Below, one piece after another: positions 9,750 to 55,804 of a DNA stretch of 64,000 nucleotides. The position numbers and the translations under genes were made by a program. The stretch spans positions 384,001 through 448,000 of the forward strand of contig CAVQNG010000025.1 of the NCBI GenBank assembly GCA_963713825.1. The letters are read 5' to 3'. Under the pieces are notes generated by a model. The model did no database searches. It saw only the letters and a program-made list of their open reading frames with translations, and was not told the origin of the DNA. Every line of letters begins with the position of its first letter. Within the stretch, counting starts at the first letter, position 1. This stretch comes from an uncultured Acidobacteriota bacterium (lineage in GTDB: Bacteria > Acidobacteriota > Thermoanaerobaculia > Multivoradales > JAHEKO01).

Positions 9750-12700
9750 TCATGCTTCTTCTCCTTCTTCAGTAGTTCCTTTGTGCAGTTCTTCTGGGGT
9801 TTCGAAAAGTGGAGTGCGCTTCAACCCGATTCCACGCCACACGAAATAAATGGCGGGGAAGACAATCAGCTCGCCCATGAAGGAGGTGAACAGGCCGCCG
9901 ACCATCGGCGCTGCGATTCGCCGCATCACGTCCGCACCCGTGCCGGAGGACCACAGGATCGGGACCAGGGCGATGAAGGTCGTCACGACCGCCATGGTCT
10001 TGGGTCGGATCCGTTGGACGGCACCGTGGTCCACGGCCTCCCGGAGGTCGGAGAACGTGCTCATCCTGCCCCTGCTCTTCCAGTTCTCGTAGGCGATGTC
10101 CAGATACAGCAGCATCACCACGCCGGTTTCAGCTGCCAGCCCGGCCAGGGCGATCACTCCGACCCAGACTGCAACCGACCAGTTGTAGCCCAGCCAGTCC
10201 ATCAGCCAGATCGACCCCACCAACGCGAAGGGAACCGCCGATAGAACTATGGCGGTCTTGACCAGCGACTTCGTGTGGAAGTACAGGATCAGGAAGATCA
10301 AGATCAGGGTGATCGGCACGATGACCAGCAGGCGAGCCTTGGCCCGCTGCATGTACTCGTACTGGCCCGACCAGAAGATGCTGTAGCCTGGAGGCAGATC
10401 TACCTGTTCGGCCACCTCGCGTCTTGCCCTTTCTACCCAGCCGCCGACGTCGATGCCCCTCAAGTCCACATAAACCCAGGCATTGGGGCGGGCGCCTTCC
10501 GTCTTGATTCCTGGAGGTCCTGTTCGAATCACGAGCTCGGCTAACTGGCCAAGGGGAACTTGCGCTCCTGAAGGTGATGCGACGAGCACTTCCTTCAGCG
10601 TCGACGGGGAATCCCGAAGCTCCCGTGGATAGCGGACATTGATCGGATATCTCTCGAGACCCTCGACCGTCCAGGAGACGTTCATTCCACCGACCGCCGA
10701 TTGAATGACGTCCTGGATATCGCCGACTTTGATGCCGAAGCGTGCGGCGGCCTCCCGATCGATCTCGAAATCGATATACGAGCCACCCATCACCCGCTCG
10801 GCGTACACCGAGAGCGTGCCTGGCAGGGGCTTGACCACGGTTTCGACCTGCTCGGCAATCTGCTCGAGCGTGGTCAGGTCGGGACCCGCGACTTTGATAC
10901 CGACCGGTGTCTTGATGCCCGTCGATAGCATGTCGATCCGGGTCTTGATCGGCATGGTCCAGGCATTGGTCAAGCCGGGTATCTGGATGGCCTGGTCGAG
11001 CTCGGCGATCAGGTCTTCCTTGGTGAGGCCGGGTCTCCACTCCGATGGATCCTTGAGCACGATGGTCGTTTCGATCATCGACAAAGGAGCCGGGTCGGTG
11101 GCGGTCTCGGCACGTCCGACCTTTCCAAATACTGTTTCGACTTCTGGAAAGGTTTTAATGATCTTGTCGGTCTGTTGCAGGAGCTCCTTCGCTTTGGTGA
11201 TGGAAATGCCCGGAAACGTCGTCGGCATGTAGAGCAGATCCCCTTCCCACAGCGGTGGCATGAACTCGGAGCCGATTCTCTGCAGTGGAACAAGGGTCAC
11301 GGCAAGAATCGCGACCATCGCGAGGATCACCATCCATCGCCATCGTAGGGCCCAATTGAGGACAGGGGTGTAGAGGAAACGGAGGGCGCGGGACACCGGG
11401 TTACGGTCCTCGCTGCGGATCTTGCCTCGGACGAACCAGAACATGAGCACGGGTACGGCGGTCACGGCCAGGATAGAGGCCATGGCCATGGAGTAGGTCT
11501 TCGTGAACGCCAGGGGTTTGAAAAGACGACCCTCCTGCGCTTCGAGGGTGAAGACCGGCAGAAATGAGACCGTGATTACTAGAAGCGTGAAGAAGAGGGT
11601 TGGACCCACCTCCTGAGCCGCCTTCGTGATGATCTCCAGGTGGGATCGTTTCCCCTGCCACTCCTCGTAGTGCTTGTGGGCGTTTTCGACCATGATGATG
11701 GCCGCGTCCACCAGCACACCGATCGAGATCGCGATGCCTCCCAGAGACATGATGTTCGCGCCGATTCCCTGGATCTTCATGATGATGAATGCGAGGAGAA
11801 TCGAGACTGGAATGGAGATAATCGCGACCAGTGCCGAGCGGAAGTGAAACAGAAAGACCAGGCAGACCAGCGCCACAACAATCGATTCCTCGAGCAGGGT
11901 GCGGGTCAACGTCTCCACGGCGCGATCGATCAGGCCAGTTCGGTCGTAGGCGATGGAGATCTCCACATCTTCAGGGAGGCCGGCCTTGAGCTCCTCGAGG
12001 CGCTCCTTCACGTTCTCGATAACCGTTCGCGTGTCGGCCCCCCAGCGAACCACAACAATGCCGCCCACAGTCTCCCCTTCACCGTTCCACTCGGCCAGAC
12101 CGCGACGGATTTCGGGCCCGATGGTGACCCGCGCCACATCTCTGAGCAGCACGGGTACCCCACCTGGGGACGCGGTCAGCACGATGGTCTCGAGATCCTT
12201 CACGTTCTTCACGTAACCCAGTCCCCGAACCATGAACTCCTTCTCGGCTAGCTCGACGACCCGTCCACCAACATCGATGTTGGATCGTTGAATCGCCTTT
12301 CTCACCTGATCGATCGGAATCCCGTAGGCGCGCAGCCGTACCGGATCGACCTCGACCTGGTACTGCCGCACAAAGCCGCCGATCGACGCCACCTCGGCGA
12401 CGCCATCGACCGAAGTCAAGCCATAGCGCAGGTACCAGTCCTGATAGCTCCGCAGGTCGGCAAGCGAGTGATTCTCGGAGTTGAGAACGTACATGAAGGC
12501 CCAGCCCACTCCGGTAGCATCGGGGCCGAGCTGAGGAGCCACACCAGCAGGCAGCTGTCTCGAGAGGCCCGAGAGGTATTCCAGGACTCGGGAACGAGCC
12601 CAATAGAGATCCGTGCCATCTTCGAAGATCACGTACACGAACGAGAAGCCGAAGAAGGAATAGCCCCTGACGACTTTGGCGAATGGCACTGACAACATCG

Positions 12701-12914
12701 TCGTGGTGATGGGGTAGGTGACCTGGTCTTCGACTACCTGCGGTGCCTGCCCTGCGAACTCGGTGAAGATGATCACCTGGACGTCGGACAGGTCGGGGAT
12801 CGCGTCGACCGTGGTGTTGCGGATGGCCCAGACGCCACCCAGAACCGCCAGAATCAAGCCCACTATGACGACCAGCTGGTTTCTGAGAGACCACTCGATA
12901 ACTCGATCCAACAT
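9750..12914 (-). CDS. cusA: CusA/CzcA heavy-metal efflux RND permease (Cu/Ag type)
   Basis: DAIPDLSDVQVI, GPDATGVGW, SEFMPPL.EGDLLYMP, TDPAPLSMIET and WTMPIKTRIDML with the CusA methionine triad. Confidence 0.95.
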   Translation of the reverse strand: MLDRVIEWSLRNQLVVIVGLILAVLGGVWAIRNTTVDAIPDLSDVQVIIFTEFAGQAPQVVEDQVTYPITTTMLSVPFAKVVRGYSFFGFSFVYVIFEDGTDLYWARSRVLEYLSGLSRQLPAGVAPQLGPDATGVGWAFMYVLNSENHSLADLRSYQDWYLRYGLTSVDGVAEVASIGGFVRQYQVEVDPVRLRAYGIPIDQVRKAIQRSNIDVGGRVVELAEKEFMVRGLGYVKNVKDLETIVLTASPGGVPVLLRDVARVTIGPEIRRGLAEWNGEGETVGGIVVVRWGADTRTVIENVKERLEELKAGLPEDVEISIAYDRTGLIDRAVETLTRTLLEESIVVALVCLVFLFHFRSALVAIISIPVSILLAFIIMKIQGIGANIMSLGGIAISIGVLVDAAIIMVENAHKHYEEWQGKRSHLEIITKAAQEVGPTLFFTLLVITVSFLPVFTLEAQEGRLFKPLAFTKTYSMAMASILAVTAVPVLMFWFVRGKIRSEDRNPVSRALRFLYTPVLNWALRWRWMVILAMVAILAVTLVPLQRIGSEFMPPLWEGDLLYMPTTFPGISITKAKELLQQTDKIIKTFPEVETVFGKVGRAETATDPAPLSMIETTIVLKDPSEWRPGLTKEDLIAELDQAIQIPGLTNAWTMPIKTRIDMLSTGIKTPVGIKVAGPDLTTLEQIAEQVETVVKPLPGTLSVYAERVMGGSYIDFEIDREAAARFGIKVGDIQDVIQSAVGGMNVSWTVEGLERYPINVRYPRELRDSPSTLKEVLVASPSGAQVPLGQLAELVIRTGPPGIKTEGARPNAWVYVDLRGIDVGGWVERARREVAEQVDLPPGYSIFWSGQYEYMQRAKARLLVIVPITLILIFLILYFHTKSLVKTAIVLSAVPFALVGSIWLMDWLGYNWSVAVWVGVIALAGLAAETGVVMLLYLDIAYENWKSRGRMSTFSDLREAVDHGAVQRIRPKTMAVVTTFIALVPILWSSGTGADVMRRIAAPMVGGLFTSFMGELIVFPAIYFVWRGIGLKRTPLFETPEELHKGTTEEGEEA

Positions 12915-12925
12915 GGCAATCCCCT

Positions 12926-14425
12926 TTAGTGGTCTTTCTGTTGAGAGCGCTGCGCGATCATCTTCTGCACCGCCGCTTGTAGGCTCGACTCCGAGTCGAT
13001 GAGAAACTGCGATGAGGTCACGATGCGATCCCCTTCGTTCAAACCCTCGAGAACCTCGACTTCACCACCCCCTTCGTGCCCGGTCGTGATCTCCCGAGGT
13101 GCGAAGCTCCCTTCTCCCAGGTCGACGATCACGATGCTGCGCTGCCCAGTCCTGAGGACGGCCTGCGTTGGAACGACCAGCGCCTGCTGGGCGGCTGTGG
13201 GGTGGAAGCGGACGGTGCCGAACATTCCGGCCCTGAGACGCCCGGTCGGGTTGGGGACTTCGACCTTCATGCGCAGCGTCCGAGTGGCTTCGGAGAACTC
13301 CGGCTCGATGTAGCGAACGGTGCCGCGAAAGACCTCGCCAGGGAAGTAGGTCAATTCGAGCTCGGCCACGCTGTCGATGTCGATCTGGGCCAGCTGGTGC
13401 TCGAAGACCTCGACGGACAACCAGATCGAGCGCAGATCGGCGATGTGGTACACCTCCATCCCAGGCCGGACCGCCATGCCCTCGAGCCCCGCCATCCTCT
13501 TCATGACCAGGCCACTTGCCGGCGCCACGACCTGCAAGGTCCGGAAGACCTCCCCAGTGCGCTCCAGGTTGTCGATCTGCTCGGAGGAGATATCCCAGTA
13601 GCGGAGACGCTCCCGAGCCGAGTCGACCAACGCGCTGGCCCGACGCCCCGCCTCGGCGTTAGTGCTGTCGAACTTCTTGGCGTACTGGATGGCCGACAGC
13701 AGCTCCTGCTCGGTCTGAACGAGCTCAGGAGAGTAGATTTCGAATAGAGGTTGGCCCTTCTTCACGGGCTCGCCAACGTAGTTGACGTAGACCTTCTCGA
13801 CCCAACCGGAGTACTTCGTGGTCACGGTGACCATGCGCTCCTGGTCGTACTCGAGGTAACCGACAGTGCGGATCTCCTGATTCAGGTCGCGCCGCTCGAC
13901 GACCGCGGTCTGAACGTTCATGTTCTGGACGACGACCGGGTTGATGCTGACCGTCGGGCCCTGATCAACGGCCTGGTTCGCCTCGTCTGCATAGACCGGC
14001 ACGTAGTCCATCCCCATCTCGTCCTTGGCCGGAACCGGTGAAGAGATGGTGGGGTTCATCGGATTGCGATAGAAGAGGATCTCCCGCTCGCCTCCTGCCG
14101 CCGGAGATCTCTTGGCTGATCCTTCTTGTCCACCTCCACTTAAAGGCACGAGGGCCATGCCGCAGACCGGGCACTCGCCGGGCTCGTCCTCGAGAATGTG
14201 GGGATGCATGGAGCAGGTCCAAAGCTGTTCTCCCTGTTCCTCGGAGACCATCTCCATCGTGCCGGCGTGATAGTCGAGGCGGGATTGCAGCCACCCATCG
14301 ACTGGATGCAGACCCCAGGGGTCGAAGAACAGTAGATAGAAGAGCAGAAAGCTGAAAGCGACCAACAGCAGTGCCCACAGCACCTGCTTCCCACGGGAAT
14401 TCTCAGATTTGGCAAGTGATGTCAT
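12926..14425 (-). CDS. cusB: CusB-like RND periplasmic adaptor with heavy-metal-binding domains
   Basis: WTCSMHP..CPVCGMAL and YRNPM..DEMGMDYVP metal-binding modules, YSPELVQTEQE, SQFLIDSES. Confidence 0.92.
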   Translation of the reverse strand: MTSLAKSENSRGKQVLWALLLVAFSFLLFYLLFFDPWGLHPVDGWLQSRLDYHAGTMEMVSEEQGEQLWTCSMHPHILEDEPGECPVCGMALVPLSGGGQEGSAKRSPAAGGEREILFYRNPMNPTISSPVPAKDEMGMDYVPVYADEANQAVDQGPTVSINPVVVQNMNVQTAVVERRDLNQEIRTVGYLEYDQERMVTVTTKYSGWVEKVYVNYVGEPVKKGQPLFEIYSPELVQTEQELLSAIQYAKKFDSTNAEAGRRASALVDSARERLRYWDISSEQIDNLERTGEVFRTLQVVAPASGLVMKRMAGLEGMAVRPGMEVYHIADLRSIWLSVEVFEHQLAQIDIDSVAELELTYFPGEVFRGTVRYIEPEFSEATRTLRMKVEVPNPTGRLRAGMFGTVRFHPTAAQQALVVPTQAVLRTGQRSIVIVDLGEGSFAPREITTGHEGGGEVEVLEGLNEGDRIVTSSQFLIDSESSLQAAVQKMIAQRSQQKDH

Positions 14426-15816
14426 GGCTTGGATTGCTCCGTCATTGAGATCTGTTGCAGAGGCTCTGCCACCACCCCCTCGAGTTGGACCAGGCGGATG
14501 GAATAGTCGGCTTGCGCACGCGCAATCGAGGTCTCGGCCCTGAACAGGACATGTTCCGCATCCAGTAGATCGAGTGCGTTCAAGGTCCCGGATACATAGC
14601 CGTACTGGGCCGACTGGACTGACTCTTCAGCCTGCAGGATCAATATGTCCTCGAGCAGGCGGAACTGTTGCCAGGTGAGCGGTATCCGCTGCATGAGATC
14701 GCCGATCGCAGATTCGATACCGGCCAGGACATCCCGTTTGCCTTCCCGGGCGGCAAGCTCGATCTGGCTTGCCTCTTCGACACCAGCTCTGGTTCTCTTG
14801 CGCCAGATCGGAACGCTGACGCCGCCCTGGATGCCGAAGATGTCGTCGCCGTTGCCCTCGGGCGGCGAGATCATCCCCGCCTGGTCTTGCCTCGGGTCGA
14901 CGAACGTATAGGTCAGTCCGACCTTGAAGTCGGGCCGGAAAGCCTTCTCGGCCCGCTTGACCCGCGCCTCGGAGGCGGCGATGCGGGCGTCGGCAGCCGT
15001 CAATTCTGGTCGCGAGCGGATTGCGGATTCCCTTAGCCTCTCGACGTCGAGGGCGACTTGTTCGCCCTCCGGGAGCAACGCCGGGAGCAGGGTCGTCGAA
15101 GCGGGACGATCTCGCAGGTCGTTGAGGGTGGCTTCCAGGTCGACCCGGCGCAGATCGATGTCCAACAGGAGGTTCTCTGCGAGAGTGATCTCGGCCTGCA
15201 TCTTGATGACATCCTGGCTGGCGCCGGTACCTGTCGCGTAGCGCGCCTGCGAGATCTCCTCATGCTGGCGGAGATGATCGACAAAATCCTGGGTGATCTC
15301 CTTGTGTCGCACCAGGAAGGCCAGCTCGTAGTAGAGGCGGCGAACTTCTGTGGCGAGAGCGAGTCGCTTGGCCTCGACATCGGCGTAGAGTGCGGTCGCA
15401 TTGAGGAGATTCGCCTGTTCTTCCAGATCGAACTTCGAGAGCCAGGGTAGGCTCTGCAGATAGTTCAAAGTCAGCACCTGAGGTCCTGTCCGCGTTTCCG
15501 GACTCTTCAGAAATGCGGTGATACCTACGACGGGATCAGGAAGAGCTCCTACGTTCGAGGCGCGATGTTCGGCTGCGCGTGCCTGTGCGAGCCCCCTGGC
15601 GACACCTGGGTTGCGATCCAAGGCGTCGGCAACAAGTGCTTTGAGCTGATTGTCTGTCTGCGACTCCAGAAGCCGATCGGCCGGCGCCTCGATCGGGGCG
15701 GCCGTCGTCCTCTCGCCAGTTGGCGAGTGGGAACTGTCTGGGTCTGCCTGCTGTCCGGTTGCGATCGTGGCTAAAAGCGTTGCCGCAACAAGATTGATGC
15801 CGATCCTTGAATGCAC
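14422..15816 (-). CDS. TolC-family outer-membrane efflux protein (CusC-like)
   Basis: OEP repeats (ALDRNP, ALPDP, RSRPEL, LDLLDAE), signal peptide, and 4-bp overlap with cusB. Confidence 0.9.
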   Translation of the reverse strand: MHSRIGINLVAATLLATIATGQQADPDSSHSPTGERTTAAPIEAPADRLLESQTDNQLKALVADALDRNPGVARGLAQARAAEHRASNVGALPDPVVGITAFLKSPETRTGPQVLTLNYLQSLPWLSKFDLEEQANLLNATALYADVEAKRLALATEVRRLYYELAFLVRHKEITQDFVDHLRQHEEISQARYATGTGASQDVIKMQAEITLAENLLLDIDLRRVDLEATLNDLRDRPASTTLLPALLPEGEQVALDVERLRESAIRSRPELTAADARIAASEARVKRAEKAFRPDFKVGLTYTFVDPRQDQAGMISPPEGNGDDIFGIQGGVSVPIWRKRTRAGVEEASQIELAAREGKRDVLAGIESAIGDLMQRIPLTWQQFRLLEDILILQAEESVQSAQYGYVSGTLNALDLLDAEHVLFRAETSIARAQADYSIRLVQLEGVVAEPLQQISMTEQSKP

Positions 15817-17224: not shown

Positions 17225-17890
17225 ATGCCGACGAGCACTGTCGAGGACTATCTGAAGTGCATCCTGCTGGCTGAGCAGGAGGCACCCGATCAGCCTGTGA
17301 GCACCGGCCAGATCGCGGCCGCACTGGGTGTCGCTCCCGGCACGGTGACGGCGATGCTCAAGACCCTGGCCAACAGCAGTCTGGTGAGCTATGAGCCCTA
17401 TTCTGGGGTGTCCCTCACGGATCCCGGACGTCAGCTGGCGGTGCATGTGCTGCGCCGTCATCGACTGGTAGAGCTGTTTCTGGTTCGGGTCATGGGTCTC
17501 GACTGGGCGGAAGTGCACGACGAAGCGGAGCTGCTGGAGCACGCCGTGTCGGATCGCATCATCGAGCGCATGGATGCCATGCTAGGGGAGCCCGATGTGG
17601 ATCCCCATGGTGACCCGATCCCAACGGCGGGTGGAGAGGTGGAGCATCGAGAGCTGCAGAGCCTGCTCGACTGTCCGCTGGATGTCTGGCTGCAGATCGC
17701 CCGGGTCACCGATCAGACTGCCGACTTCCTCCAGTTGGTGGAGACCGAACATCTGAAGCCCGGTAGCCGGCTCATGGTTACTGGTCGCGACGAGGCCGCC
17801 GACACCATGCAGTTGGAGAGACCCGGGGTGGGGCCGTTGGCGCTGGGCTGGCGAGCGGCTTCCAAGATTCTGGTTGCCGAAAAGCCCTAG
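17225..17890 (+). CDS. mntR: DtxR/MntR metal-dependent repressor with C-terminal FeoA/SH3 domain
   Basis: VEDYLK, RRHRLVELFL, HDEAELLEHAVS and DPHGDPIP motifs. Confidence 0.9.
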   Translation: MPTSTVEDYLKCILLAEQEAPDQPVSTGQIAAALGVAPGTVTAMLKTLANSSLVSYEPYSGVSLTDPGRQLAVHVLRRHRLVELFLVRVMGLDWAEVHDEAELLEHAVSDRIIERMDAMLGEPDVDPHGDPIPTAGGEVEHRELQSLLDCPLDVWLQIARVTDQTADFLQLVETEHLKPGSRLMVTGRDEAADTMQLERPGVGPLALGWRAASKILVAEKP

Positions 17891-17900
17891 CTCACAAGGC

Positions 17901-18893
17901 TCAGAGACGTTCGAGTGGCAGCCAGCGGGCGCGCATCAGCAGGGAGAGACGGGAAGCGGCCCCCAGCTGCGGAGAGTTCAGCCGCAGATCAGCGCCGGCT
18001 TCCTCCAACAGGTTCAGCAGGCGAACTCCTGCCAGGAGCAGGTACTTGCCGCAGCGTCGGTAGTCTGGCGGTAGGTCCGGAACGGCCTGCGCCGATCGCA
18101 GCAGCAGAGGGCGAATCCTGGTGCACTCGGCATGAACGGCTTGGGCGAGGGTTTCGTCGTCTCCTTCTGCTGTCGCCTCCCAGGTCTCTGGTAGCTCGTT
18201 GACAGGGAGCCTGGCCTGGTGCCGCCGGAGATCCTCTCCCAGCATCCGCAACGACAGGATCCGCGACAAGGCAGCCGCCATGGCTTCGAGCGCCGGAGTT
18301 GGCGGGTGGCCGACGAGCACTTCCGCCAGCGCTCCACCCAGCTCGGCACTGTCGCGCTCTGCCGCTTCGGCGGTGGCGGGTCGACGAACCGTGGCTCGGC
18401 GACGAGCGGCGCTGATCAATCGATCGAAGCCGTTGCGCGACCAGGGGATGTGTTGCTCGAGTCGAGCGATCTGGAGGAAGACGGGCTGCCCCTGGGGATC
18501 GCCAGTGAGGGCAGCCTCCAAAGTGAATTCCCAGCGATTGATCTGGGCCAGCCGCTCACCTTCGAGCCCGCCCTGACGAGCGAAATCGAAGAGTGTGAAG
18601 GCGTAGGTGGCGAGCGCCTGTACCCGGCGGCGCTCGGTGCCGGATAGCAGTGTCAGAGCTGGCGCGAAATCGAGAAGAAGTCGCCGGGTGACCTCCGCGC
18701 AGAGGGCTGCCGCCTCGCGAGGATCGCCGCCTTCGAGGGGACGGCTGATCTCGTCGACGAGGCGACTATGGTGGCTGGAGACATAGTCTTCGGCCTGGCG
18801 ACTGACCTCCGGCGGCTTTTCGGCATTGCTGACAGGCCTGCCCGGGGCTTCAGTCAACAGGGATTGTCCCGGCTGTCTTCTGTCCTCGCTCAT
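17901..18893 (-). CDS. Squalene/phytoene synthase-fold protein with degenerate Asp-rich motifs
   Basis: Resembles HpnC/CrtB (F..AL.LL...RR.V.AL..YA; ERLAQINRW; EDLRRHQARLP), but the DDxxD motifs are absent. Confidence 0.65.
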   Translation of the reverse strand: MSEDRRQPGQSLLTEAPGRPVSNAEKPPEVSRQAEDYVSSHHSRLVDEISRPLEGGDPREAAALCAEVTRRLLLDFAPALTLLSGTERRRVQALATYAFTLFDFARQGGLEGERLAQINRWEFTLEAALTGDPQGQPVFLQIARLEQHIPWSRNGFDRLISAARRRATVRRPATAEAAERDSAELGGALAEVLVGHPPTPALEAMAAALSRILSLRMLGEDLRRHQARLPVNELPETWEATAEGDDETLAQAVHAECTRIRPLLLRSAQAVPDLPPDYRRCGKYLLLAGVRLLNLLEEAGADLRLNSPQLGAASRLSLLMRARWLPLERL

Positions 18894-19104
18894 GAGTGAT
18901 GGGGTCCTGAATCGGTCGATCGATCCTAGCAGTCGAAGGCGGCCCGGGGCTCAGATGGTGTCACGTCTTCGGCGATGCAGAGAGATATGGAAATATGGCG
19001 ATTAGATATACTGGCGGCATCTCTTGGGCAGGCGATCCAGGGGCAGTTCCGATGGCTGTGAAGGGCTCCATTCCTGTTCGAAGGACGACTGACTAGATTT
19101 CCAT

Positions 19105-20157
19105 ATGTCGATGGCGAGGCAAGACCGAATCAAGCGTCGCATGATTCGTCAGGTGGTGCGCGACAATCTCGAAACCATCGAGGGAGCTCGCCCCCGACGA
19201 CGGGGACGCCGTCTCCGGACGGTGCTGACCGTGGCTCGGGTACTCTTCCTGGTCGCGCTTCCGGCTGCCCTGTTCACCTCCTCCTACGTCTTGTCGACCG
19301 TGGCCGCCGAGTGGCGGGAAGACGTCTGGTTGGATGGGGCTCAAGGCGCCAGGACCTCCACACAGGCCCCCAGGGTCTTCAGCGAAATGGAGCCGCTGCC
19401 GCCGATCGAGACGGGCCGTTCCCTGGTGACGCCCCAGCCGATCGATCCGTCCGTGCTGCCTCTGGCGCTGCACACCGTGGTGCTGGATCCAGGCCATGGA
19501 GGAGACAACGAAGGAACGGTCTCACCGACAGGCCTCATCGAGAAGGAGATCACACTGGACATCGCCCAGCGCGTCCAGAGCCTGCTCGAGAGCTACTCGT
19601 ACAAGGTCGTGATGACGCGCCGGCGGGATGTCGATTTCTCGCTCAAGCAGCGAGCCGAGTTGGCCAACGAGGCCAGGGGTGACATCTTTGTCTCCATTCA
19701 CGTGAACTGGATCGAAAATCGGGAGGTCCGGGGTGTCGAGACTTTCTTTCTTGGCGCCACCGAGGACCCCTACTTGGAAGCCCTGGCGGCGCGAGAGAAC
19801 CAGAACTCGGGTTACTCGTTGGCCGACTTCCGAGACATCCTGGAGCAGGTCTACGCCGGGGTGAGGCAAGAGGAGTCCCGGCAGTTGGCGGGCGCCATGC
19901 AGCAGGCGCTTTACGAATCGCTGAAGGCCGTGAACTCGAAGGTTCGGGACCGCGGCGTCAAGAGTGCGCCCTTTGGTGTCCTGACCCACACCGAAATGCC
20001 CGCCATCCTGGCCGAGGTCTCTTGTGTGTCCAACGACGTCGAAGCCCGGCTCCTGATGACGCCGATCTACCGTCAGTATCTCGCCGAGGCCATCGTGGAG
20101 GGTATTCAGATCTATGCCCGCAGCCTCGGCCAGTCCAACAACCGCCTCGAGGGTTGA
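19105..20157 (+). CDS. Membrane-anchored N-acetylmuramoyl-L-alanine amidase (Amidase_3, AmiC-like)
   Basis: VVLDPGHGG, EKEITL, FVSIHVN and ILAEV zinc-amidase motifs; basic N-terminus followed by a TM helix. Confidence 0.92.
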   Translation: MSMARQDRIKRRMIRQVVRDNLETIEGARPRRRGRRLRTVLTVARVLFLVALPAALFTSSYVLSTVAAEWREDVWLDGAQGARTSTQAPRVFSEMEPLPPIETGRSLVTPQPIDPSVLPLALHTVVLDPGHGGDNEGTVSPTGLIEKEITLDIAQRVQSLLESYSYKVVMTRRRDVDFSLKQRAELANEARGDIFVSIHVNWIENREVRGVETFFLGATEDPYLEALAARENQNSGYSLADFRDILEQVYAGVRQEESRQLAGAMQQALYESLKAVNSKVRDRGVKSAPFGVLTHTEMPAILAEVSCVSNDVEARLLMTPIYRQYLAEAIVEGIQIYARSLGQSNNRLEG

Positions 20158-20160
20158 TCG

Positions 20161-21207
20161 ATGTCCGAAGACACACCAGAGCAGGGAAGCGAGAGGGTGC
20201 TCAATCTGGGAGTCGATTTGGGCACTTCCAGAAGCTCGGTGTCGGCTTCGAACGGCGTCCGCCAGGCGGTTGAAAGCTACGTTGGATGGCCTCTCGACAT
20301 GGTGGCCAGCAAGGTTCTGAAGAGAGATGTGCTGGTGGGGAAGGAGGCGATCGACAATCGCCTGATGCTGGATCTACACCGGCCGTTGGAACGGGGGCTG
20401 ATCAAAGAGGGGTCGGAGAAGGATGTTCTGGCAGTGCGCGAGCTGCTGAAGCATCTGGTCTCGTTGGCCCTGGCGGGGGCTGATCGGGAGAGTCTGCTGA
20501 TCCAAGCCGTGGTTGGCGTTCCGGCGGAGGCCCTGAGAGTCAACAAGCAGCAGCTGCGCAGCGCGCTCAAAGGAATCGTGGACTCGTTGATGATCGTTTC
20601 CGAGCCCTTTGCAGTGGCCTACGGCTTGGAGTCGCTGGTCAACGCATTGATCATCGACATCGGAGCCGGCACAGCGGATTTCTGTGTCATGCACGGCAGG
20701 TACCCTCTAGAGGAGGACCAGCGTACGCTGCCCATCGCCGGCGATCATGTGGACGAGCAGCTCCACCGGCTGATCACCTCCAAGTACCCAGACGCGAAGA
20801 TCTCACTCCACATGGCCCGCGAGTGGAAGGAGAGGTTCAGCTTCATGGGAGAGCCCATCGAGAAGGTATGGATCGTGGCGCCGGTCCAGGGACGCCCCAC
20901 GGAGTTCGACGCAACCGAGCCGATGCGGGCGGCCTGCGAGAGCTTGCTTCCAGCTGTCAGGGAGACCATGCTGGATCTGATTTCGCGGGTGCAGCCCGAG
21001 TATCAGGACAAGGTGCGCAACAACGTGATTCTTTCCGGGGGTAGCGGTCTGATTCGCGGCTTCGGACTGGCCCTGCAGGAAGCCCTCGAGGAAGTTGGCG
21101 GTGGTCGGGTCAGGGTGGTCGCCGACCCTCTCCATGTCGGGGCCGACGGTGGCCTGGCCCTGGCCATGGATGCGCCGCCCTCGGAATGGGACAAAGTGGC
21201 CGCGTGA
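20161..21207 (+). CDS. Actin-like ATPase of the MamK/Mad28 type (not canonical MreB)
   Basis: GVDLGTS, VVGVPAEA, VSEPFAVAYGL, IIDIGAGTADF, KERFSF, QPEYQ, LSGGSG and a PPSEW tail are collinear with MamK as I recall it (GIDLGTS, VSEPFMVGYGL, DIGAGTTD, KEQFSF, QPEYQ, PPQYW). Confidence 0.85.
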   Translation: MSEDTPEQGSERVLNLGVDLGTSRSSVSASNGVRQAVESYVGWPLDMVASKVLKRDVLVGKEAIDNRLMLDLHRPLERGLIKEGSEKDVLAVRELLKHLVSLALAGADRESLLIQAVVGVPAEALRVNKQQLRSALKGIVDSLMIVSEPFAVAYGLESLVNALIIDIGAGTADFCVMHGRYPLEEDQRTLPIAGDHVDEQLHRLITSKYPDAKISLHMAREWKERFSFMGEPIEKVWIVAPVQGRPTEFDATEPMRAACESLLPAVRETMLDLISRVQPEYQDKVRNNVILSGGSGLIRGFGLALQEALEEVGGGRVRVVADPLHVGADGGLALAMDAPPSEWDKVAA

Positions 21208-21321: not shown

Positions 21322-22626
21322 TCAAAGCGGAATCCGAACGATTGCGGGTGGAGGAAAGTCCTCCAGGTCCGCTTCAGCATCGATCGGAGGCGAGGCGGTG
21401 ACGAACACGAAGCCGTCACTGACCGCGCTGGTGTAGGGATCCAAACCCTCCGCAAGGCCGATGTTCAGCTGGTGAAGGTGCGTTGCTTGCCGGCCCGTTG
21501 CATCGAGCTCGATCCACACCACCCGGTTGTTGAGCGAGGGCTGGTTCTGCACCAGGATCAGCCTACCCTCCGCCCAACTCAAGCCGTCAGCCGAGACCAG
21601 TGTGAGATCGCCTTGCGGAACGACTCGCTCGACCGCACCTGTGGCCGCATCAATGGCGGAAAGTCCCTCTGCGTGGGCGACGTAGATGGTCCGCCCATCG
21701 CCGGAGGCTGCAATGCCGTTGGCGAAACCGAACTGGGGGAGCTCGAGGAAGATCTCCAGTGCTTCGGCCCCGGGCGGTAACCGATAGAGCTTCCCGGCGA
21801 GGCTCTCGGTGAGCCAGGCAGTTCCGTCGGGAGTGACAACCACGTCATTGACCAGCAGGATCTGATCGGTGTCCGGAACCGGATATCGAGCCACGAGCTC
21901 ACCGGTATCGACGTTGTAGCGCACGAGCTCGGCGGGATGTGTCATCTCCGCCATCGAGGTCGAGCCTGAAGCGGCCCAGAGCTCTCGGCTGTCAGCATCG
22001 ACCCACATCCCGAGGACTGCGCCGAGACCGTCGTTCGCCGAATCGCCAAGGTCGGAAACGGTTCCATCCGGAGAGATGCGGACGATCTTGCGCAGCAGAA
22101 AGCTGCCGGTGAACAGGTCGTCGGTAACGGCATCCCAGGCGATTCCTTCAGGAGAGAGCCTCTTTTCATCGAATGTAACGAAGACCTCGGCGGGCTCCTG
22201 CGGTTCGCCGTTGGCCCGGATCTGGTCGGCCACCCGAGCGAAGTCTGGATGATCCAGCAGTGGCTCGAAGATGGGCTGGTCGAGCTGTGTGGTCGTGCCT
22301 CCAAGACGGCCCAGAGTAGACAAGTGAGCGACGGCTTCGTCCAGCTGCCCGAGCCGGACCTCGACCTCGGCAATGCGCTCGTAGACAATCGGGTGCTCGG
22401 GGGCCACAGCCAGGGCCTCGAGATAGATCTGGTGCGCCGACTCCCAGTCCTCTTCGGCTTTGGCTTGTCTGACATCCTGGCCGAGGACTGCGAGATTGGT
22501 GGTCCTGGTCTCGGCTACCGGAGCCGTCTCCGGGGTACGGGGCGGTTCGGGTTGTGGACTCGAATCGGAGCAGCCGTGAGTCAGTAGAGTCAGGGCGATC
22601 AGGGTAGGTCCGAAACCTCGCAGCAT
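21322..22626 (-). CDS. Lipoprotein with TPR region and SMP-30/gluconolactonase-like beta-propeller
   Basis: Lipobox-like LTHGC, TPR-like helices, and SPEGIAWD, VNDVVV, ANGIA, ADGL propeller motifs. Confidence 0.75.
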   Translation of the reverse strand: MLRGFGPTLIALTLLTHGCSDSSPQPEPPRTPETAPVAETRTTNLAVLGQDVRQAKAEEDWESAHQIYLEALAVAPEHPIVYERIAEVEVRLGQLDEAVAHLSTLGRLGGTTTQLDQPIFEPLLDHPDFARVADQIRANGEPQEPAEVFVTFDEKRLSPEGIAWDAVTDDLFTGSFLLRKIVRISPDGTVSDLGDSANDGLGAVLGMWVDADSRELWAASGSTSMAEMTHPAELVRYNVDTGELVARYPVPDTDQILLVNDVVVTPDGTAWLTESLAGKLYRLPPGAEALEIFLELPQFGFANGIAASGDGRTIYVAHAEGLSAIDAATGAVERVVPQGDLTLVSADGLSWAEGRLILVQNQPSLNNRVVWIELDATGRQATHLHQLNIGLAEGLDPYTSAVSDGFVFVTASPPIDAEADLEDFPPPAIVRIPL

Positions 22627-22721
22627 CGACTTTCCCTCTTCAGTGTTGACCTGAGTACGGTCTCGGCTCAGTCTGGTTTCGTCTGAGGATACAGTGAGCC
22701 CCCTTCGAAATCGCCTCTGAG

Positions 22722-24146
22722 CTAGGGAACGACTGCCGACCAGTAGCGCCAATCCCCTGATTCGAAGCCATCCCCGAAGATCACCGCGATGCCCTCGTAC
22801 ATCCCGATGTCGACCGTCCCGTTGATGATTCGGGGTGTGCCGTCGAAATCGGCGACACCAAGACCACCCGGCGGATCGTTATCGCCAGCGTCCTCGGCAG
22901 GTGAGCCGGGCTCCAGATGGTAATCGAGGTTTTCCGGATCGGTAAAGAGTGGATCGAGACCGATCAGATTGGCACCGTCGTCCAATCTGGCCGACGCCTC
23001 CAGGTCCACCAGGTTGCCGAAGGAGATCGTGTTGTAGAGGCTGATGTCGCCAAACTCGTAGATCGCCAGATGCAGCCCGGTATCCGTGTGGTCGGCTGCG
23101 GTGAGGTTCGTCAGGTGAATCTGCCCCGAGTCGATCACATAGGCATACACACCGTCGGATTCGCCCTGGGCAATTCCCGAGTCCCTCACGGTTATTGTCG
23201 AGACGTCCGTCGCCATGGCTCTGAGCTGAGAGCCCCCTGCGGCCCCCGTTGCGGTATTGAGCATGACTCCTGTTCGTTCGATCACGGCGACAGCAGATTG
23301 TGAAGATTCAATGCTCAAGCCGGAAGCAACCCTGACATCTCCGATTGCCGTGTTGTTGAAGATTCGCGAGTCCAGAAGTCGACCCTGGGCGAAGTGTTCC
23401 GTCCTTAGATAAACCCCACCTCCCAGGGCATCATCGCCACCGGGATTCTCAATGCTGTTGCCGTCGAACTGAGAGTCTTCGACAGTAAAATGGGCGTTGC
23501 CACCAGCCATGATCGAGAGACCGGCTCCATAGACCGCAGCCTGATTGCGGCTGATCGCCAGGTTCTGTTGGGCGACCAGGTTACTGATTTCCAGGCTCTC
23601 ATCGCCGTCGATATCCGCACTCACGCCACCACCATGAACCGAGCCCGATGAAATCGACGTATTGCCGATCACCTGCAGGTTCTCGAGCTCGACACGTGCA
23701 CCGCCTTCGAGAAGAATCTGGATTCCGGCCCCTTTCTCCGCCTGCCCATTGGTGACGGTGAAGCCCTTCAGCAAGAGCTCACCTCCGTCAATACGAACCC
23801 TCGCTACCGCATTCTCCTCACCGCCGTCGATCACTGTCGTGGTCGGGTCGTTGTCCCTTGTCGAGAAAGGGCAATCCCAGCCACCCGTCATCTCGACCCT
23901 CCCGGCATCGAAGGTCTTTGGGAAGAGAAGATTCTCCTCGTATGTGGAGTTACCCTGGATCCTTATCTCGGTGTCGTCACCTACGACCAACGCATCGATA
24001 GCATCCTGGATATCGTCGTAGGTGCCACACGTCCCTACCGTGGAGATCGTTGTCTGAGCGACTGAGCCCACCGGCAGCAGGACCAGCAGAAGGCCACATA
24101 GGCCGAAACTCGACAGACACGTCCGATTCTTGATTGCCGATTTCAT
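22722..24146 (-). CDS. Secreted beta-helix protein with choice-of-anchor-Q-like domain and IFGDGFESG tail
   Basis: Signal peptide, IQDAID, GGG/GAG..N beta-helix repeats, DYHLEPGSPAEDAG..DFDGTPR..VDIGMYE, and terminal IFGDGFESGDWRYWS. Confidence 0.8.
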   Translation of the reverse strand: MKSAIKNRTCLSSFGLCGLLLVLLPVGSVAQTTISTVGTCGTYDDIQDAIDALVVGDDTEIRIQGNSTYEENLLFPKTFDAGRVEMTGGWDCPFSTRDNDPTTTVIDGGEENAVARVRIDGGELLLKGFTVTNGQAEKGAGIQILLEGGARVELENLQVIGNTSISSGSVHGGGVSADIDGDESLEISNLVAQQNLAISRNQAAVYGAGLSIMAGGNAHFTVEDSQFDGNSIENPGGDDALGGGVYLRTEHFAQGRLLDSRIFNNTAIGDVRVASGLSIESSQSAVAVIERTGVMLNTATGAAGGSQLRAMATDVSTITVRDSGIAQGESDGVYAYVIDSGQIHLTNLTAADHTDTGLHLAIYEFGDISLYNTISFGNLVDLEASARLDDGANLIGLDPLFTDPENLDYHLEPGSPAEDAGDNDPPGGLGVADFDGTPRIINGTVDIGMYEGIAVIFGDGFESGDWRYWSAVVP

Positions 24147-24181: not shown

Positions 24182-27860
<3,679 letters not shown>

Positions 27861-27925: not shown

Positions 27926-29689
27926 ATGCGGATGGAGAATCTCGAGATTGCCAAGGTGCTGTCGCAGATGGCCGACTTGTTGGAGATCCAGGACGCCAAT
28001 CCTTTCCGCGTCCGCGCCTACCGAAACGCCGCCCGTTTCGTCGATGGGCATGCCAAGCCGATGCGCAAGCTGGTCGAAGAGGAGAGTGACCTGACGGACC
28101 TGCCCGGCATCGGCAAGGAGATGGCCAGGCACATCCACGAGCTGATCGAAACGGCAGGGCTGTCGGTTCTCGACGAGTTGGCCGAGAAGATTCCCCGCTC
28201 GCTCATCGACGTCATCGAGCTACCTGGAGTGGGTCCGAAGAAGGCCAAGAAACTCTGGAAGGAGCTCGGCGTCGAAACGGTGGACGAGCTCGAGCAGCGC
28301 GCCGAGGCTGGAGACGTCGCGGCGCTGGATGGGTTCGGAGAGAAGAGCCAAGAGAAGATCCTCACCGGCATCGAACAGTTCCGACAGCACCGCAGCCGCT
28401 TCAAGCTGGTGGAAGCCGATCTGCTGGTACAACCCCTACTCGAATACCTACAGGAGAGCTCCGAGATCGAGCGCCTCGAGGTTGCCGGCAGTTACCGTCG
28501 CCGGGTAGAGACGGTCGGTGACATCGATCTGCTGGCCATCGCCAGCGACGCCGAGGCGGTGATGGATCGATTCACCGCGTACCCGAAAGTCACCCAGATA
28601 CAAATGTCGGGCGGCACGCGCGGTAGGGTCTCGTTGCAGTCCGGACTGGAAGTCGATCTGCGCATCCTCACCGAACCGAGTTATGGGGCGGCCCTGGTCT
28701 ATTTCACCGGCTCCAAAGAGCACAACATCAAGCTGCGCAAGCGGGCCATCGAGCGGGGGTTGAGGCTCTCGGAGTACGGGGTCTTTCGAGAGGACGGTGG
28801 CGGCGAGGACGAGTCAGAAGAGAAGGATCCATGGGCTGGCGAGCAACTAGCCGGTCGGACCGAGAAGGAAGTGTACTCCACCGTGGAGCTGCCCTGGATC
28901 GAGCCGGAGCTACGGGAGGATCGTGGCGAAGTCGAGGCTGCGGCCAGGGGCGAGCTGCCCGTCTTGGTGGAGCTGTCCGACATGAAGGGCGACCTGCAGA
29001 TGCACTCCACCTGGTCGGATGGCAAGAACAGCATCGAGGAGATGGTGGCGGCCTGTGCCGCTCGGGGCTACGAGTACATGGCCCTGACCGATCACAGCAA
29101 GGCTCTGGCTATGACCGGAGGTCTCGATGCCAAGCGTATCCGCGAGCAGTGGAAGGAGATCGAAGAGGTCCAGGAGCGGCACCCGGAGATCCGCATCCTG
29201 AGGAGTCAGGAAGTGGACATCCTGGCTGATGGCACGCTGGACCAGGACGAGGATGTGTTGGAGGAGCTCGATCTGGTGGTCGTCTCCGTTCACTCCCGCT
29301 TCGATCTGCCTGCGGCCGAGCAGACGGCACGGGTTCTGACGGCTCTCCAGCATCCACATGTCGATGTCCTCGCCCACCCGACCGGCAGGCTCATCAACCG
29401 TCGACCACCCTTCGACCTACAGATCGATGAAGTATTGGACTGCGCCAAAGAGAATGGCGTCGTAGTGGAGCTCAATGCGCATCCGGAACGTCTGGATCTC
29501 AAGGACAGCCACTTGATGCTGGCGCGCGAGTTGGGCTTGAAGGTGGCGATCAGCACCGATGCCCATCGGGCTCGGGATCTCGATCTCATGCACTACGGCG
29601 TCGAACAGGCCAGGCGAGCCTGGCTATCGAAGGCGGATGTGGTGAACGCACTGCCGCTGGAGGAGTTCCTGCAGCTGCTACGCAGCTAG
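27926..29689 (+). CDS. polX: DNA polymerase X with PHP domain
   Basis: NPFRVRAY, GSYRR, GDIDLL, VDLRI, FTGSKEHN, and PHP motifs (QMHSTWSDG, TDHS, HPTGR, STDAH). Confidence 0.96.
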   Translation: MRMENLEIAKVLSQMADLLEIQDANPFRVRAYRNAARFVDGHAKPMRKLVEEESDLTDLPGIGKEMARHIHELIETAGLSVLDELAEKIPRSLIDVIELPGVGPKKAKKLWKELGVETVDELEQRAEAGDVAALDGFGEKSQEKILTGIEQFRQHRSRFKLVEADLLVQPLLEYLQESSEIERLEVAGSYRRRVETVGDIDLLAIASDAEAVMDRFTAYPKVTQIQMSGGTRGRVSLQSGLEVDLRILTEPSYGAALVYFTGSKEHNIKLRKRAIERGLRLSEYGVFREDGGGEDESEEKDPWAGEQLAGRTEKEVYSTVELPWIEPELREDRGEVEAAARGELPVLVELSDMKGDLQMHSTWSDGKNSIEEMVAACAARGYEYMALTDHSKALAMTGGLDAKRIREQWKEIEEVQERHPEIRILRSQEVDILADGTLDQDEDVLEELDLVVVSVHSRFDLPAAEQTARVLTALQHPHVDVLAHPTGRLINRRPPFDLQIDEVLDCAKENGVVVELNAHPERLDLKDSHLMLARELGLKVAISTDAHRARDLDLMHYGVEQARRAWLSKADVVNALPLEEFLQLLRS

Positions 29690-37049: not shown

Positions 37050-37562
37050 ATGGATACGGTAGACGAGCATCGCGAAGCGGCGCCGAAGGTTCTGCGTTTT
37101 TCGGTCATCACGGTCAGTGACAGCCGCACGTTGGAGACAGACATCAGCGGCCAGAGCATCTGTGAATTGGCCATCGCCGCCGGGCATCAGATCCATGGGC
37201 ACGAGATCGTCTCGGATGACAGGTTGGAGATTCGTACTCAACTCCAAGCGGTTCTGGCCGACGAGGGAGTCGATGTTCTGGTGTTAAATGGGGGTACCGG
37301 TTTCTCGCCACGGGACGTGACCAGCGAGGTCGTCGAGCCGCTCCTGGACACGACTCTTTACGGATTCGGTGAGCTCTTTCGGATGCTCTCGTGGCGGCAG
37401 GTAGGAGCGGCGGCCATGCTGAGCCGTGCGGTCGCCGGTCTCATTGGCAAGAGAGCGGTTTTCGTTTTGCCTGGCTCGCCCAAAGCCGTCGAGCTAGCCA
37501 TGGAACAGCTCATCCTGCCCGAAGCGGCTCACCTTCTGAGCCAAGTCGAGAGATCGGATTGA
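37050..37562 (+). CDS. moaB: Molybdenum cofactor biosynthesis protein MoaB/Mog
   Basis: TVSDSR, DISG, GGTGFSPRDVT, GFGELFR and LPGSPKAV motifs. Confidence 0.93.
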   Translation: MDTVDEHREAAPKVLRFSVITVSDSRTLETDISGQSICELAIAAGHQIHGHEIVSDDRLEIRTQLQAVLADEGVDVLVLNGGTGFSPRDVTSEVVEPLLDTTLYGFGELFRMLSWRQVGAAAMLSRAVAGLIGKRAVFVLPGSPKAVELAMEQLILPEAAHLLSQVERSD

Positions 37563-37570
37563 CCGCCCTC

Positions 37571-44424: not shown

Positions 44425-44802
44425 TCAGGGAAATTCGGCCGGTGACATCCCGATGTCGATGATGGAACAACCTTCGCGAACCTCGATACCGGCTGTTCTC
44501 GCCTCTTCGAGAATCGGGCGGTCTGCCGAGCCCGGGTTGAACCAGACCTCGACACCGCTCATTCCGGCGAGCTCGGTCAGGATCAACCGTGTTCGGGGCG
44601 GGGAAAGGTAGAGACTGATCCTGTCCAGCGGGACCGGGATGGCCTCGAGGGATCGGTAGACAGAGAGGCCTTCGATCTCTTCCTCGTGAGGGTTGATTGG
44701 ATAGACATCCCAGCCGGCGCTCTTGTAGGCGCGAACACACTTGTTGCCGAATTTGCTGCGATCCCTGGAGGCCCCAACGATCGCTATTGCTTTGTCACTC
44801 AT
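44425..44802 (-). CDS. CoA-binding protein (YccU-like)
   Basis: IAIVGASRDRSKFG, YPINP, VWFNPG and GCS; ATGA overlap with the selB stop. Confidence 0.88.
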   Translation of the reverse strand: MSDKAIAIVGASRDRSKFGNKCVRAYKSAGWDVYPINPHEEEIEGLSVYRSLEAIPVPLDRISLYLSPPRTRLILTELAGMSGVEVWFNPGSADRPILEEARTAGIEVREGCSIIDIGMSPAEFP

Positions 44803-46706: not shown

Positions 46707-46719
46707 CTCTGCGGCAGCT

Positions 46720-47175
46720 TCAGTCTTGATCGACAAGGGTTTGGCGCGCCAGGCGGTTGATGGTGGAGCCGTCCGCACGGCCACTGTACCGCGCCATCAT
46801 GGCTTTCATGGTCGGTCCGATGCCCTGTGGTCCGCTCAGGCCCTCGCTCTCGACGAAGGAGCGGATGGCAAGTGCGAGCTCTTCTTCGTCGACCGCCGGC
46901 GGTAGGTACTCCTCGAGGATCGCAGCCTCCCGCTCTTCCTTGTCAGCCAGATCCTCACGCCCGCCGGAGCGATACTGCTCGCTCGCCTCGTGCCGTTGCT
47001 TGATGCCCTTGCGGGTCAGGCTCCAGAGGGTCTCTTCATCAACCTCTGCCCCGGTACGGATCCTCTCGTTGTGGATCGCACTGAGGAGCATTCGGAGGGT
47101 AGCGAGGCGTTCCTGTTCACCGGCCTTGAGAGCCGCCTGCACCTGCTTTTCTATTTCCTGCTGCGGTGTCGTCAT
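46720..47175 (-). CDS. GatB/YqeY domain protein
   Basis: RLATLRML, KQRHEASEQY..GGREDLA.KE..E...LEEYLP and GRADG motifs. Confidence 0.92.
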   Translation of the reverse strand: MTTPQQEIEKQVQAALKAGEQERLATLRMLLSAIHNERIRTGAEVDEETLWSLTRKGIKQRHEASEQYRSGGREDLADKEEREAAILEEYLPPAVDEEELALAIRSFVESEGLSGPQGIGPTMKAMMARYSGRADGSTINRLARQTLVDQD

Positions 47176-52909: not shown

Positions 52910-52941
52910 GTGGGCTGGTAGACTCCAGCCCACTTTTTTTT
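52910..52941 (+). terminator. Rho-independent terminator
   Basis: GTGGGCTGG-tagact-CCAGCCCAC followed by T8. Confidence 0.85.
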
Positions 52942-52960
52942 GGTTCGGACTGCCTATTTC

Positions 52961-55804
<2,844 letters not shown>

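Follow-up and report, generated by a model that had tools for sequence, protein, structure and literature searches.

A MamK-like actin gene strictly paired with a gene for a predicted membrane-anchored cell-wall amidase in Acidobacteriota

The window analysed here is a stretch of 64,000 nucleotides (nt) from an uncultured Acidobacteriota bacterium of the class Thermoanaerobaculia. At positions 19105 to 21207 it carries two adjacent genes on the forward strand, one encoding an Amidase_3 protein of 350 amino acids (aa) and the other a 348-aa protein with an actin fold. The actin gene begins 3 nt after the stop codon of the amidase gene, as an earlier reading of the sequence (the original prediction) had described, and the open reading frame (ORF) map and the sequence agree. 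The features of this unit are listed below.

18894-19104, no strand: divergent intergenic region between the SQS_PSY-like gene (- strand) and the amidase gene (ORF map, sequence)
19105-20157, + strand: amidase gene, 350 aa (ORF map, Pfam Amidase_3)
19105-19218, + strand: basic tail of the amidase, predicted to be cytoplasmic, residues 1-38 (alignment A1, net charge)
19219-19308, + strand: single hydrophobic segment of the amidase, predicted signal-anchor or transmembrane (TM) helix, residues about 39-68 (hydropathy)
19309-19476, + strand: linker of the amidase, residues about 69-124, Pro/Ala-rich among orthologs (gappy, poorly conserved alignment)
19477-20109, + strand: Amidase_3 catalytic domain, residues 125-335 (Pfam PF01520)
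19753-19929, + strand: insertion of about 50 residues within the catalytic domain, residues about 217-275 (matches to solved amidases)
20149-20163, + strand: gene junction, with GAGGG at 20149-20153, stop codon TGA at 20155-20157, spacer TCG and ATG at 20161 (sequence)
20161-21207, + strand: actin-fold gene, a MamK-family ATPase of the amidase-linked clade, 348 aa (ORF map, NCBIfam, PDB match)

The Shine-Dalgarno-like GAGGG of the junction is positioned 8-12 bases 5' of the actin ATG. This layout fits co-transcription and coupled translation of the pair, and the coordinates at related loci likewise give short gaps or overlapping genes. Both flanking genes, a SQS_PSY-like gene (17901-18893) and a TPR/SGL gene (21322-22752), lie on the opposite strand, so the unit is composed of exactly two genes, amidase and actin. 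The divergent intergenic region is presumably the site of the pair's promoter. The amidase may instead start at an ATG two codons downstream of 19105, since the alignment with the same-genus ortholog begins at residue 2.

The best family for the actin is the NCBIfam MamK model NF040964, at 375.3 bits against a cut-off of 400. The BeeR model NF053558 gives 201.2 bits (cut-off 530) and the MreB models give 46-55 bits, with cut-offs of 293-366 (TIGR00904, 46.3 against 365.75; PRK13927, 55.3 against 293). Pfam reports the generic MreB_Mbl family (64.6 bits, cut-off 27) and Actin (56.9 bits), while the matches to Hsp70, HscA and EutJ are weak and FtsA scores 18.8 bits. Among solved structures, MamK (PDB 5LJW) aligns with actin residues 11-345 (E 5.2e-79, 269 bits), the BeeR structure 8R2N scores 139 bits and the MreB structures score 39-44 bits. 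The motifs that had been taken as MamK-like (GVDLGTS, VSEPFAVAYGL, DIGAGT, KERFSF, QPEYQ and a terminal PPxxW, here PPSEW) are all present in the translation.

Conservation was assessed in alignments of 43 orthologs each, A1 for the amidase and A2 for the actin, from which one locus (L013, genome G104) and six loci with a truncated or unaligned amidase N-terminus were left out. The nucleotide-binding motifs and catalytic Glu of the actin (D19-S23, E148, D166/G168-G170 and G293) are invariant in 43/43 sequences. The C-terminal PPxxW is kept in the clade, and its W343 is invariant among the 43 orthologs.

Four features that define magnetosome MamK can be examined here, and the actin lacks three of them: its score lies below the family cut-off, it falls outside the MamK clade, and its gene context is different. 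The fourth feature, intact actin-fold ATPase motifs, is present. Identity to 80 MamKs from named magnetotactic bacteria is 37-44%, and true or named MamKs score 508-545 bits on NF040964. Within the window's class the cut-off is reached in 0/401 genomes, class members scoring 315-393 bits. The protein does not have the features of BeeR either, as its first conserved motif is at residue 17, with about 12 residues before it and no extension of 30-50 residues. From these comparisons, the actin is assigned to a MamK-like superfamily as a member distinct from magnetosome MamK, BeeR and the MreB of its own host.

A search of 1.84 billion representatives returned 958 relatives at E <= 1e-3. Trees were built from 67 of the 150 listed representatives, those with near-full query coverage, together with 17 of 50 amidase-linked loci. 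For the careful maximum-likelihood (ML) tree, 10 rows of a fusion clade were dropped and 12 named proteins were added, giving 87 rows, with the host's own MreB, on a long branch, as the root. The amidase-linked actins form a separate clade of 21 rows with support of 100/100 in this tree. The named MamKs form another, also of 21 rows (support 100/99), which includes Magnetospira QH-2, Magnetofaba australis, Magnetococcus, Magnetospirillum WYHS-4, Nitrospinota and Desulfobulbaceae. BeeR-like sequences, recognised by BeeR scores of 337-506 bits, are basal, and the ML tree does not resolve the order in which the MamK-like clades diverge. Twenty-four positions set the actins of the amidase-linked clade apart, being conserved in at least 90% of its members but in no more than 10% of either the MamK or the sister clade; among them are R126, V127, Q130 and R133, which lie on one stretch, W222, and A333, A338 and D342 at the C-terminus. 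These clade-specific positions, whose location on the fold is predicted, are candidate contacts for the amidase tail.

Several branches of the tree have features of their own. Within the amidase-linked clade, a branch from outside the class includes a protein (P0275) labelled by NCBI as 'MamK family actin-like protein [Nitrospira sp.]'. A further well-supported clade (P0133-P0162) consists of proteins of 523-1232 aa with the MamK-like actin domain at the C-terminus; their N-terminal 200-900 residues match no Pfam family, and one member scores 405.6 bits on the MamK model. In three loci from another class of the phylum (L040-L042, family f29), the actin nests within the clade of the window's class beside family f17 (support 100/99), and the amidase retains the whole tail motif described below. 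The pair could have moved from one class to another, or the placement could be a matter of taxonomy.

Pairing with the amidase is confined to the amidase-linked clade among the groups compared. An amidase was found within 8 kb in 0/80 canonical MamK loci of named magnetotactic bacteria, and in 0/80 metagenome loci of the nearest sister clade (L141-L220), including 0/53 of those having at least 900 nt of upstream sequence. In 33 of 41 long loci of the sister clade, the gene directly preceding the actin on its strand is another conserved one, of about 336 aa and without a Pfam family (for example L186:2838-3845, + strand). MamK-like actins may generally occur as two-gene cassettes with clade-specific partners.

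Inside the clade, the pairing is strict. The 50 related loci that were fetched represent 49 distinct places, and a blastp comparison without low-complexity filtering showed that in 49/49 of them the actin is directly preceded, on its own strand, by an amidase, which is cut by a contig end in two. One of the 49 is L013, whose genome (G104) also contributes one row to the trees. With default settings, tblastn recovered the upstream amidase in 29/30 and 19/20 loci, the sole miss in each being the same place (L021/L043, genome G273). That place holds a full-length amidase ortholog with an Ala/Glu-rich linker, overlooked by the low-complexity and composition defaults of tblastn; automated counts of adjacency in high-GC genomes call for care on this account. 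Across 21 loci with long flanks, the amidase and the actin are the only genes found in 21/21; the next most frequent, LigA, occurs in 7/21.

The two genes also share a phyletic pattern. Of 401 genomes sampled from the window's class, 267 (88/133 genera) have the actin, nearly always as a single copy, and 262 (88/133 genera) have the amidase ortholog. Orthologs of the amidase were called at E <= 1e-55; class genomes without the actin retain only an amidase paralog, at E 1e-31 to 1e-42. The unpublished genomes G104 and G175 were counted in the class tallies and in the paralog tally, and G179, G135 and G004, also unpublished, in the paralog tally; none of the conclusions rests solely on them. The actin and the amidase give the same count in 20 of 23 families, for example 0/57 in f16 and 8/11 in f1, and differ in f14 (82 actins vs 77 amidases), f17 (34 vs 33) and f20 (16 vs 17). 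Read from the two tables of class genomes, both genes occur in 260, the actin only in 7 and the amidase only in 2, and all 9 discordant genomes are assemblies of 310-1250 contigs. Joint absence across several separate families points to repeated co-loss of the pair. The conserved adjacency that the original prediction needed is borne out by the 49 loci.

In a phylum-wide sample the actin is found in 30/401 genomes, and outside the class in only 5 of about 362 genomes, as counted from family tallies. Two of these out-of-class members of the amidase-linked clade exceed the MamK cut-off (G448, locus L038, 417.9 bits; G602, locus L039, 407.8 bits). Public homologs number in the thousands; those with names are called 'rod shape-determining protein' or MreB and come from metagenome-assembled genomes of Acidobacteriota and Thermoanaerobaculia. 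The names of the representatives are mostly absent or generic, and no cultured carrier of the pair was identified among them. Fifteen DNA sequencing runs, labelled as sediment, freshwater sediment or salt marsh metagenome, each contain at least half of the sampled words of the DNA. Five RNA runs contain small shares of 0.07-0.16, which are no evidence of expression.

The host genome is 96% complete in 38 contigs and was searched for the genes that would accompany a magnetosome or an MreB system. The MamI profile has no match in it. MamP reaches at most 24.6 bits (cut-off 300) and MamQ at most 88.1 bits (cut-off 250, contig C14), both outside the window. The MamI search works, as it is positive above cut-off in 3/4 genomes of named magnetotactic bacteria, and MamI was found in 0/5 further pair-carrying genomes, G448 and G602 among them. 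No magnetosome cluster explains the gene, since MamI is absent from the genome and MamP and MamQ give generic matches only; as judged from these profiles, the actin gene is not a magnetosome gene. The earlier statement that the window holds no other mam or mad gene stands for MamI, MamP and MamQ, and the other mam and mad genes were not searched. The window also lacks mreC, mreD and rodA, as had been noted. A true MreB (486 bits, C3:743924-744895), MreC (743118-743534) and a RodA-type gene (739673-740707) lie together on another contig (C3:739673-744895).

The upstream gene encodes a protein with a well-defined catalytic domain. Pfam Amidase_3 (PF01520) matches residues 125-335 with 166.9 bits against a gathering cut-off of 27 (E 5.8e-49). 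H131, E146, H199 and E304, which we take to be the metal ligands and catalytic Glu from alignment to AmiA and AmiC and from what is known of these enzymes, are unchanged in 43/43 orthologs. Because these residues are invariant, the protein fits an active zinc N-acetylmuramoyl-L-alanine amidase of the AmiA/B/C type. Solved amidases of that type match the catalytic domain with E 1e-27 to 1e-21, and AmiA (8C2O, E 1.3e-27), AmiC (4BIN) and the Bartonella-type 3NE8 align without a break from residue 124 to 338. Among the short amidases, 4RN7 is the best match and aligns as two pieces that skip query residues 223-275, and the short amidases 5EMI, LytH (7TJ4), CwlV (1JWQ) and CwlD (7RAG) match only the part before the insertion. 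As long amidases align through this region and short ones skip it, the insertion of about 50 residues is placed at the site of the regulatory helices of AmiA/B/C. Two of its residues, E231 and N232, are unchanged in 43/43 orthologs. In AmiA, AmiB and AmiC the insertion holds regulatory helices, and the known enzymes need activation there.

The amidase stays below the NCBIfam equivalog cut-offs for CwlD (124 bits against 221.55), AmiA (104.4 against 400), AmiC (99.4 against 700) and AmiB (84 against 532), and Pfam reports no AMIN domain in it. The anti-phage defence models of PADLOC give no match for the amidase and only 18 bits for the actin. Matches in PHROGs are limited to generic endolysin folds, and the neighbouring genes are housekeeping genes, with no sign of a phage lysis cassette.

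Ahead of the catalytic domain, the N-terminus of the amidase has a consistent architecture. The tail carries the consensus RLKRRLLRxAVxENxxxIxG, which precedes the basic run of the N-terminus and whose V18 and N21 are kept by at least 90% of the 43 orthologs. Similar motifs can still be made out in three loci from outside the class, L038, L044 and L045. One 19-residue segment with a Kyte-Doolittle hydropathy of at least 1.6 is present in 42/43 orthologs, starting at a median residue of 43, and the highest 19-residue value in the window's amidase is 2.16. Net charge ahead of this segment ranges from +3 to +13 (median +8) and has a median of 0 over the next 30 residues. This charge distribution around the hydrophobic segment fits an N-in signal anchor and is the basis for the predicted topology. 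A basic cytoplasmic N-terminus followed by one TM helix had been part of the original prediction, and the hydropathy and charge of the 43 orthologs agree with it. The linker between the anchor and the catalytic domain varies in both sequence and length.

How the two proteins might work together can be set out in steps. The basic N-terminus, of about 38 residues with its conserved helix motif, would replace a cleaved export signal and stay in the cytoplasm, and the single membrane-spanning segment and flexible linker would put the catalytic domain in the periplasm. The actin with ATP would assemble into MamK-like filaments beneath the inner membrane. The amidase tail would then dock on the filament, probably with a short helix that fits the cleft separating subdomains IA and IIA. 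Partners of actin-fold filaments usually bind by short helices in this cleft. By lining up, clustering or moving the amidase, the filament would set from inside the cell the sites at which stem peptides are removed from peptidoglycan. The AmiA-like insertion may still require a periplasmic activator. Polymerisation is expected of the actin because MamK and BeeR both polymerise (PMC11929497).

With modest confidence, we favour the reading that the amidase and actin genes form a two-gene operon that is inherited together, and that a cytoplasmic MamK-type filament binds the amidase tail and places the enzyme. The role in the cell may be in division, elongation or shaping. A non-magnetosome cytoskeletal module had been proposed for this locus: as a genomic association it is well supported, and the positioning of a hydrolase by a filament is what we infer from it. 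A bolder version, to which we give only tentative credence, is that a dynamic MamK-type filament grips the tail and arrays or transports the amidase along the membrane, trimming peptidoglycan on a cytoskeletal track. In that version MamK-like actins would ancestrally be positioners of membrane-anchored cargo, and magnetosome MamK a later specialisation. The amidase-linked lineage and the sister clades with other upstream partners would then be witnesses to that ancestral role.

Comparison to known systems places the pair beside several of them and within none. The MamK structures 5LJW, 5LJV and 5JYG resemble the pair's actin in fold, nucleotide-binding motifs and C-terminal PPxxW. Unlike MamK, the actin has its own clade, scores 375 bits, is always beside an amidase and never beside mam genes, and its hosts (its own genome and five others) lack the MamI of MamK hosts. 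RodZ is bitopic, as is predicted for the pair's amidase, and its cytoplasmic N-terminal part binds its actin partner, MreB. FtsA, which has an actin fold, binds the short basic N-terminal tail of the bitopic FtsN, whose periplasmic part handles amidase-processed peptidoglycan. The pair differs from FtsA-FtsN in that FtsA is a distant family (18.8 bits) and FtsN is not an enzyme. AmiA and AmiC are exported by Tat; the catalytic domain and the insertion of about 50 residues are common to AmiA, AmiB and AmiC (8C2O, 4BIN, 3NE8) and the pair's amidase, which has a long basic tail and a predicted anchor where AmiA and AmiC have a cleaved signal. LytH-ActH and CwlD-GerS (7TJ4, 7RAG) are Amidase_3 enzymes with dedicated partners and match the N-terminal catalytic half. 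Their partners are membrane or lipoprotein activators and not a cytoplasmic actin, and the enzymes lack the insertion.

In MreB-RodZ and in MreBH-LytE of Bacillus subtilis (PMC3817527), an actin homolog beneath the membrane directs a wall enzyme, which is the principle proposed for the pair. The pair differs from both in that its actin belongs to another family, no mreCD or rodA is involved, and the partner is the hydrolase itself, encoded in the same operon, and an amidase, not an endopeptidase as in MreBH-LytE. BeeR (PDB 8R2N) is a three-stranded tubular actin of Verrucomicrobiota that is related to MamK and has no assigned function; it has a disordered N-terminal extension of 30-50 residues, and the paper reports no gene partner (PMC11929497). 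It resembles the pair's actin in being MamK-related and in having non-magnetotactic hosts; of the two proteins, the pair's actin is by far the nearer to MamK. By analogy, the pair would work like MreB-RodZ, MreBH-LytE or FtsA-FtsN, with an actin-fold protein steering a wall-acting partner across the membrane; it is a member of none of those families.

The identity of the actin bears on two other explanations, both of which we regard as very improbable. That it is a true MamK, a leftover or silent piece of a magnetosome cluster, has in its favour that the MamK model is the best match, only 25 bits under its cut-off, and that G448 and G602 exceed that cut-off. The clade nevertheless stands apart from the named MamKs, which score 540-545 bits, the gene is a single-copy member of 267/401 class genomes, and neither the host nor the five further clade genomes have MamI, the host giving generic MamP and MamQ matches only. 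The suggestion that the gene is a relic of magnetosome actins is not upheld either, because the clade is separate, inherited across the whole class and never beside mam genes. Still less credible, to the point of being negligible, is that the actin is an ordinary MreB paralog, as the public names 'rod shape-determining protein' and MreB and the Pfam MreB_Mbl score over its cut-off would have it. The MreB models fall far under their cut-offs, solved MreB gives only 39-44 bits where solved MamK gives 269, and the tree places the protein outside MreB, as the original prediction held. The real MreB lies elsewhere beside mreC and rodA. Three findings that had been named as counting against the original prediction (a grouping within ordinary MreB, a magnetosome cluster and an unconserved adjacency) were looked for, and none was found.

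Two further explanations accept the pair and dispute the contact or the filament. The proteins might serve the same process without touching, the actin organising some other cytoplasmic thing (the division site, a pole, DNA or a membrane complex) and the amidase being co-expressed only for timing. We consider this unlikely. In its favour, the data on the pair are a genomic association and the sister clade's upstream partner differs (33/41 long loci), so that partners change between clades. It is weakened by the predicted cytoplasmic tail, whose motif is conserved class-wide and recognisable out of class and is not easily accounted for unless it has a partner in the cytoplasm; in addition, nothing else is conserved beside the pair and the junction suggests coupled translation. 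Alternatively, the actin could be a non-filament ATPase switch that acts through the N-terminus on the export, insertion or activity of the amidase, on the model of FtsA on the FtsN tail, FtsEX or a signal-peptide chaperone. The actin/Hsp70 fold does have non-filament roles, the actin has weak Hsp70, HscA and EutJ matches, and the amidase carries the AmiA-type insertion, at which the known enzymes need activation. We nonetheless hold a switch to be improbable, given the full-length match to solved MamK (E 5e-79), the polymerisation of both MamK and the more distant BeeR (PMC11929497), and the retained C-terminal PPxxW with its invariant W343.

Several points weigh against tail binding to a filament and joint inheritance as an operon. 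The proposed binding is drawn from genomic association and the polymerisation from likeness to MamK and BeeR, and co-expression of the pair is predicted from gene layout. A scan for sigma-70-like consensus found 0 promoter-like sites (0.4 expected), and the single terminator-like site that was found (1.5 expected) falls within the amidase gene. The tail helix has a hydrophobic moment of 0.60 against a shuffle mean of 0.32, which 6.6% of shuffles reach and which is not significant. The N-terminus could also be an unusually long export signal in place of a stable anchor. Because of common descent among the genomes, their co-occurrence counts do not represent independent events, though the losses in several separate families do amount to a few independent co-losses. 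Finally, the host genome has two more Amidase_3 genes, and the pair's enzyme is not the sole wall amidase; its role is probably specialised, given these two other genes.

The remaining genes of the window are of a different kind. Sixteen further ORFs that were scanned have housekeeping or efflux functions. Just upstream of the pair lie a metal-dependent repressor of DtxR/MntR type that has a FeoA domain (17225-17890, + strand) and the SQS_PSY-like (squalene/phytoene-synthase-like) gene (- strand); both adjoin the pair only in the window's own family (L054-L057), and no sign links the repressor to the actin, the iron theme notwithstanding. A three-gene RND efflux system (9750-15816, - strand) comprises a pump of the AcrB family, an outer-membrane factor and an adaptor of CusB/HlyD type that has a heavy-metal-binding domain. 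Several genes for DNA repair and replication are found near one another on the + strand, in the order a LigA-like ORF (24188-26479), PolX with a PHP domain (27926-29689), PolA (37391-40195) and UvrA (52940-55804); the LigA-like ORF was named from its translation and its recurrence beside the pair in 7/21 loci. The host probably makes selenoproteins, as a SelB-type selenocysteine elongation factor is encoded at 44799-46784 (- strand).

MamK is regarded as a hallmark protein of magnetotactic bacteria. In sediment Acidobacteriota, its closest non-magnetosome relatives make up a large family that is passed on vertically, and amidase-linked actins that pass the NCBI MamK cut-off could be mistaken for evidence of magnetotaxis in annotation and in surveys that use mamK as a marker. 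No published description of an amidase and MamK-like actin pair was found in the literature, which was covered incompletely. The pair suggests an undescribed cytoskeletal way to place a wall-cutting enzyme. Strict pairing with an amidase predicted to be membrane-anchored offers a concrete, testable function for a MamK-like actin outside magnetotaxis, and both components are small, soluble or peptide-sized. If the proposed mechanism is true, it would be a third actin-guided cell-wall system, beside those of MreB and FtsA, and would give a foothold on how the magnetosome recruited MamK.

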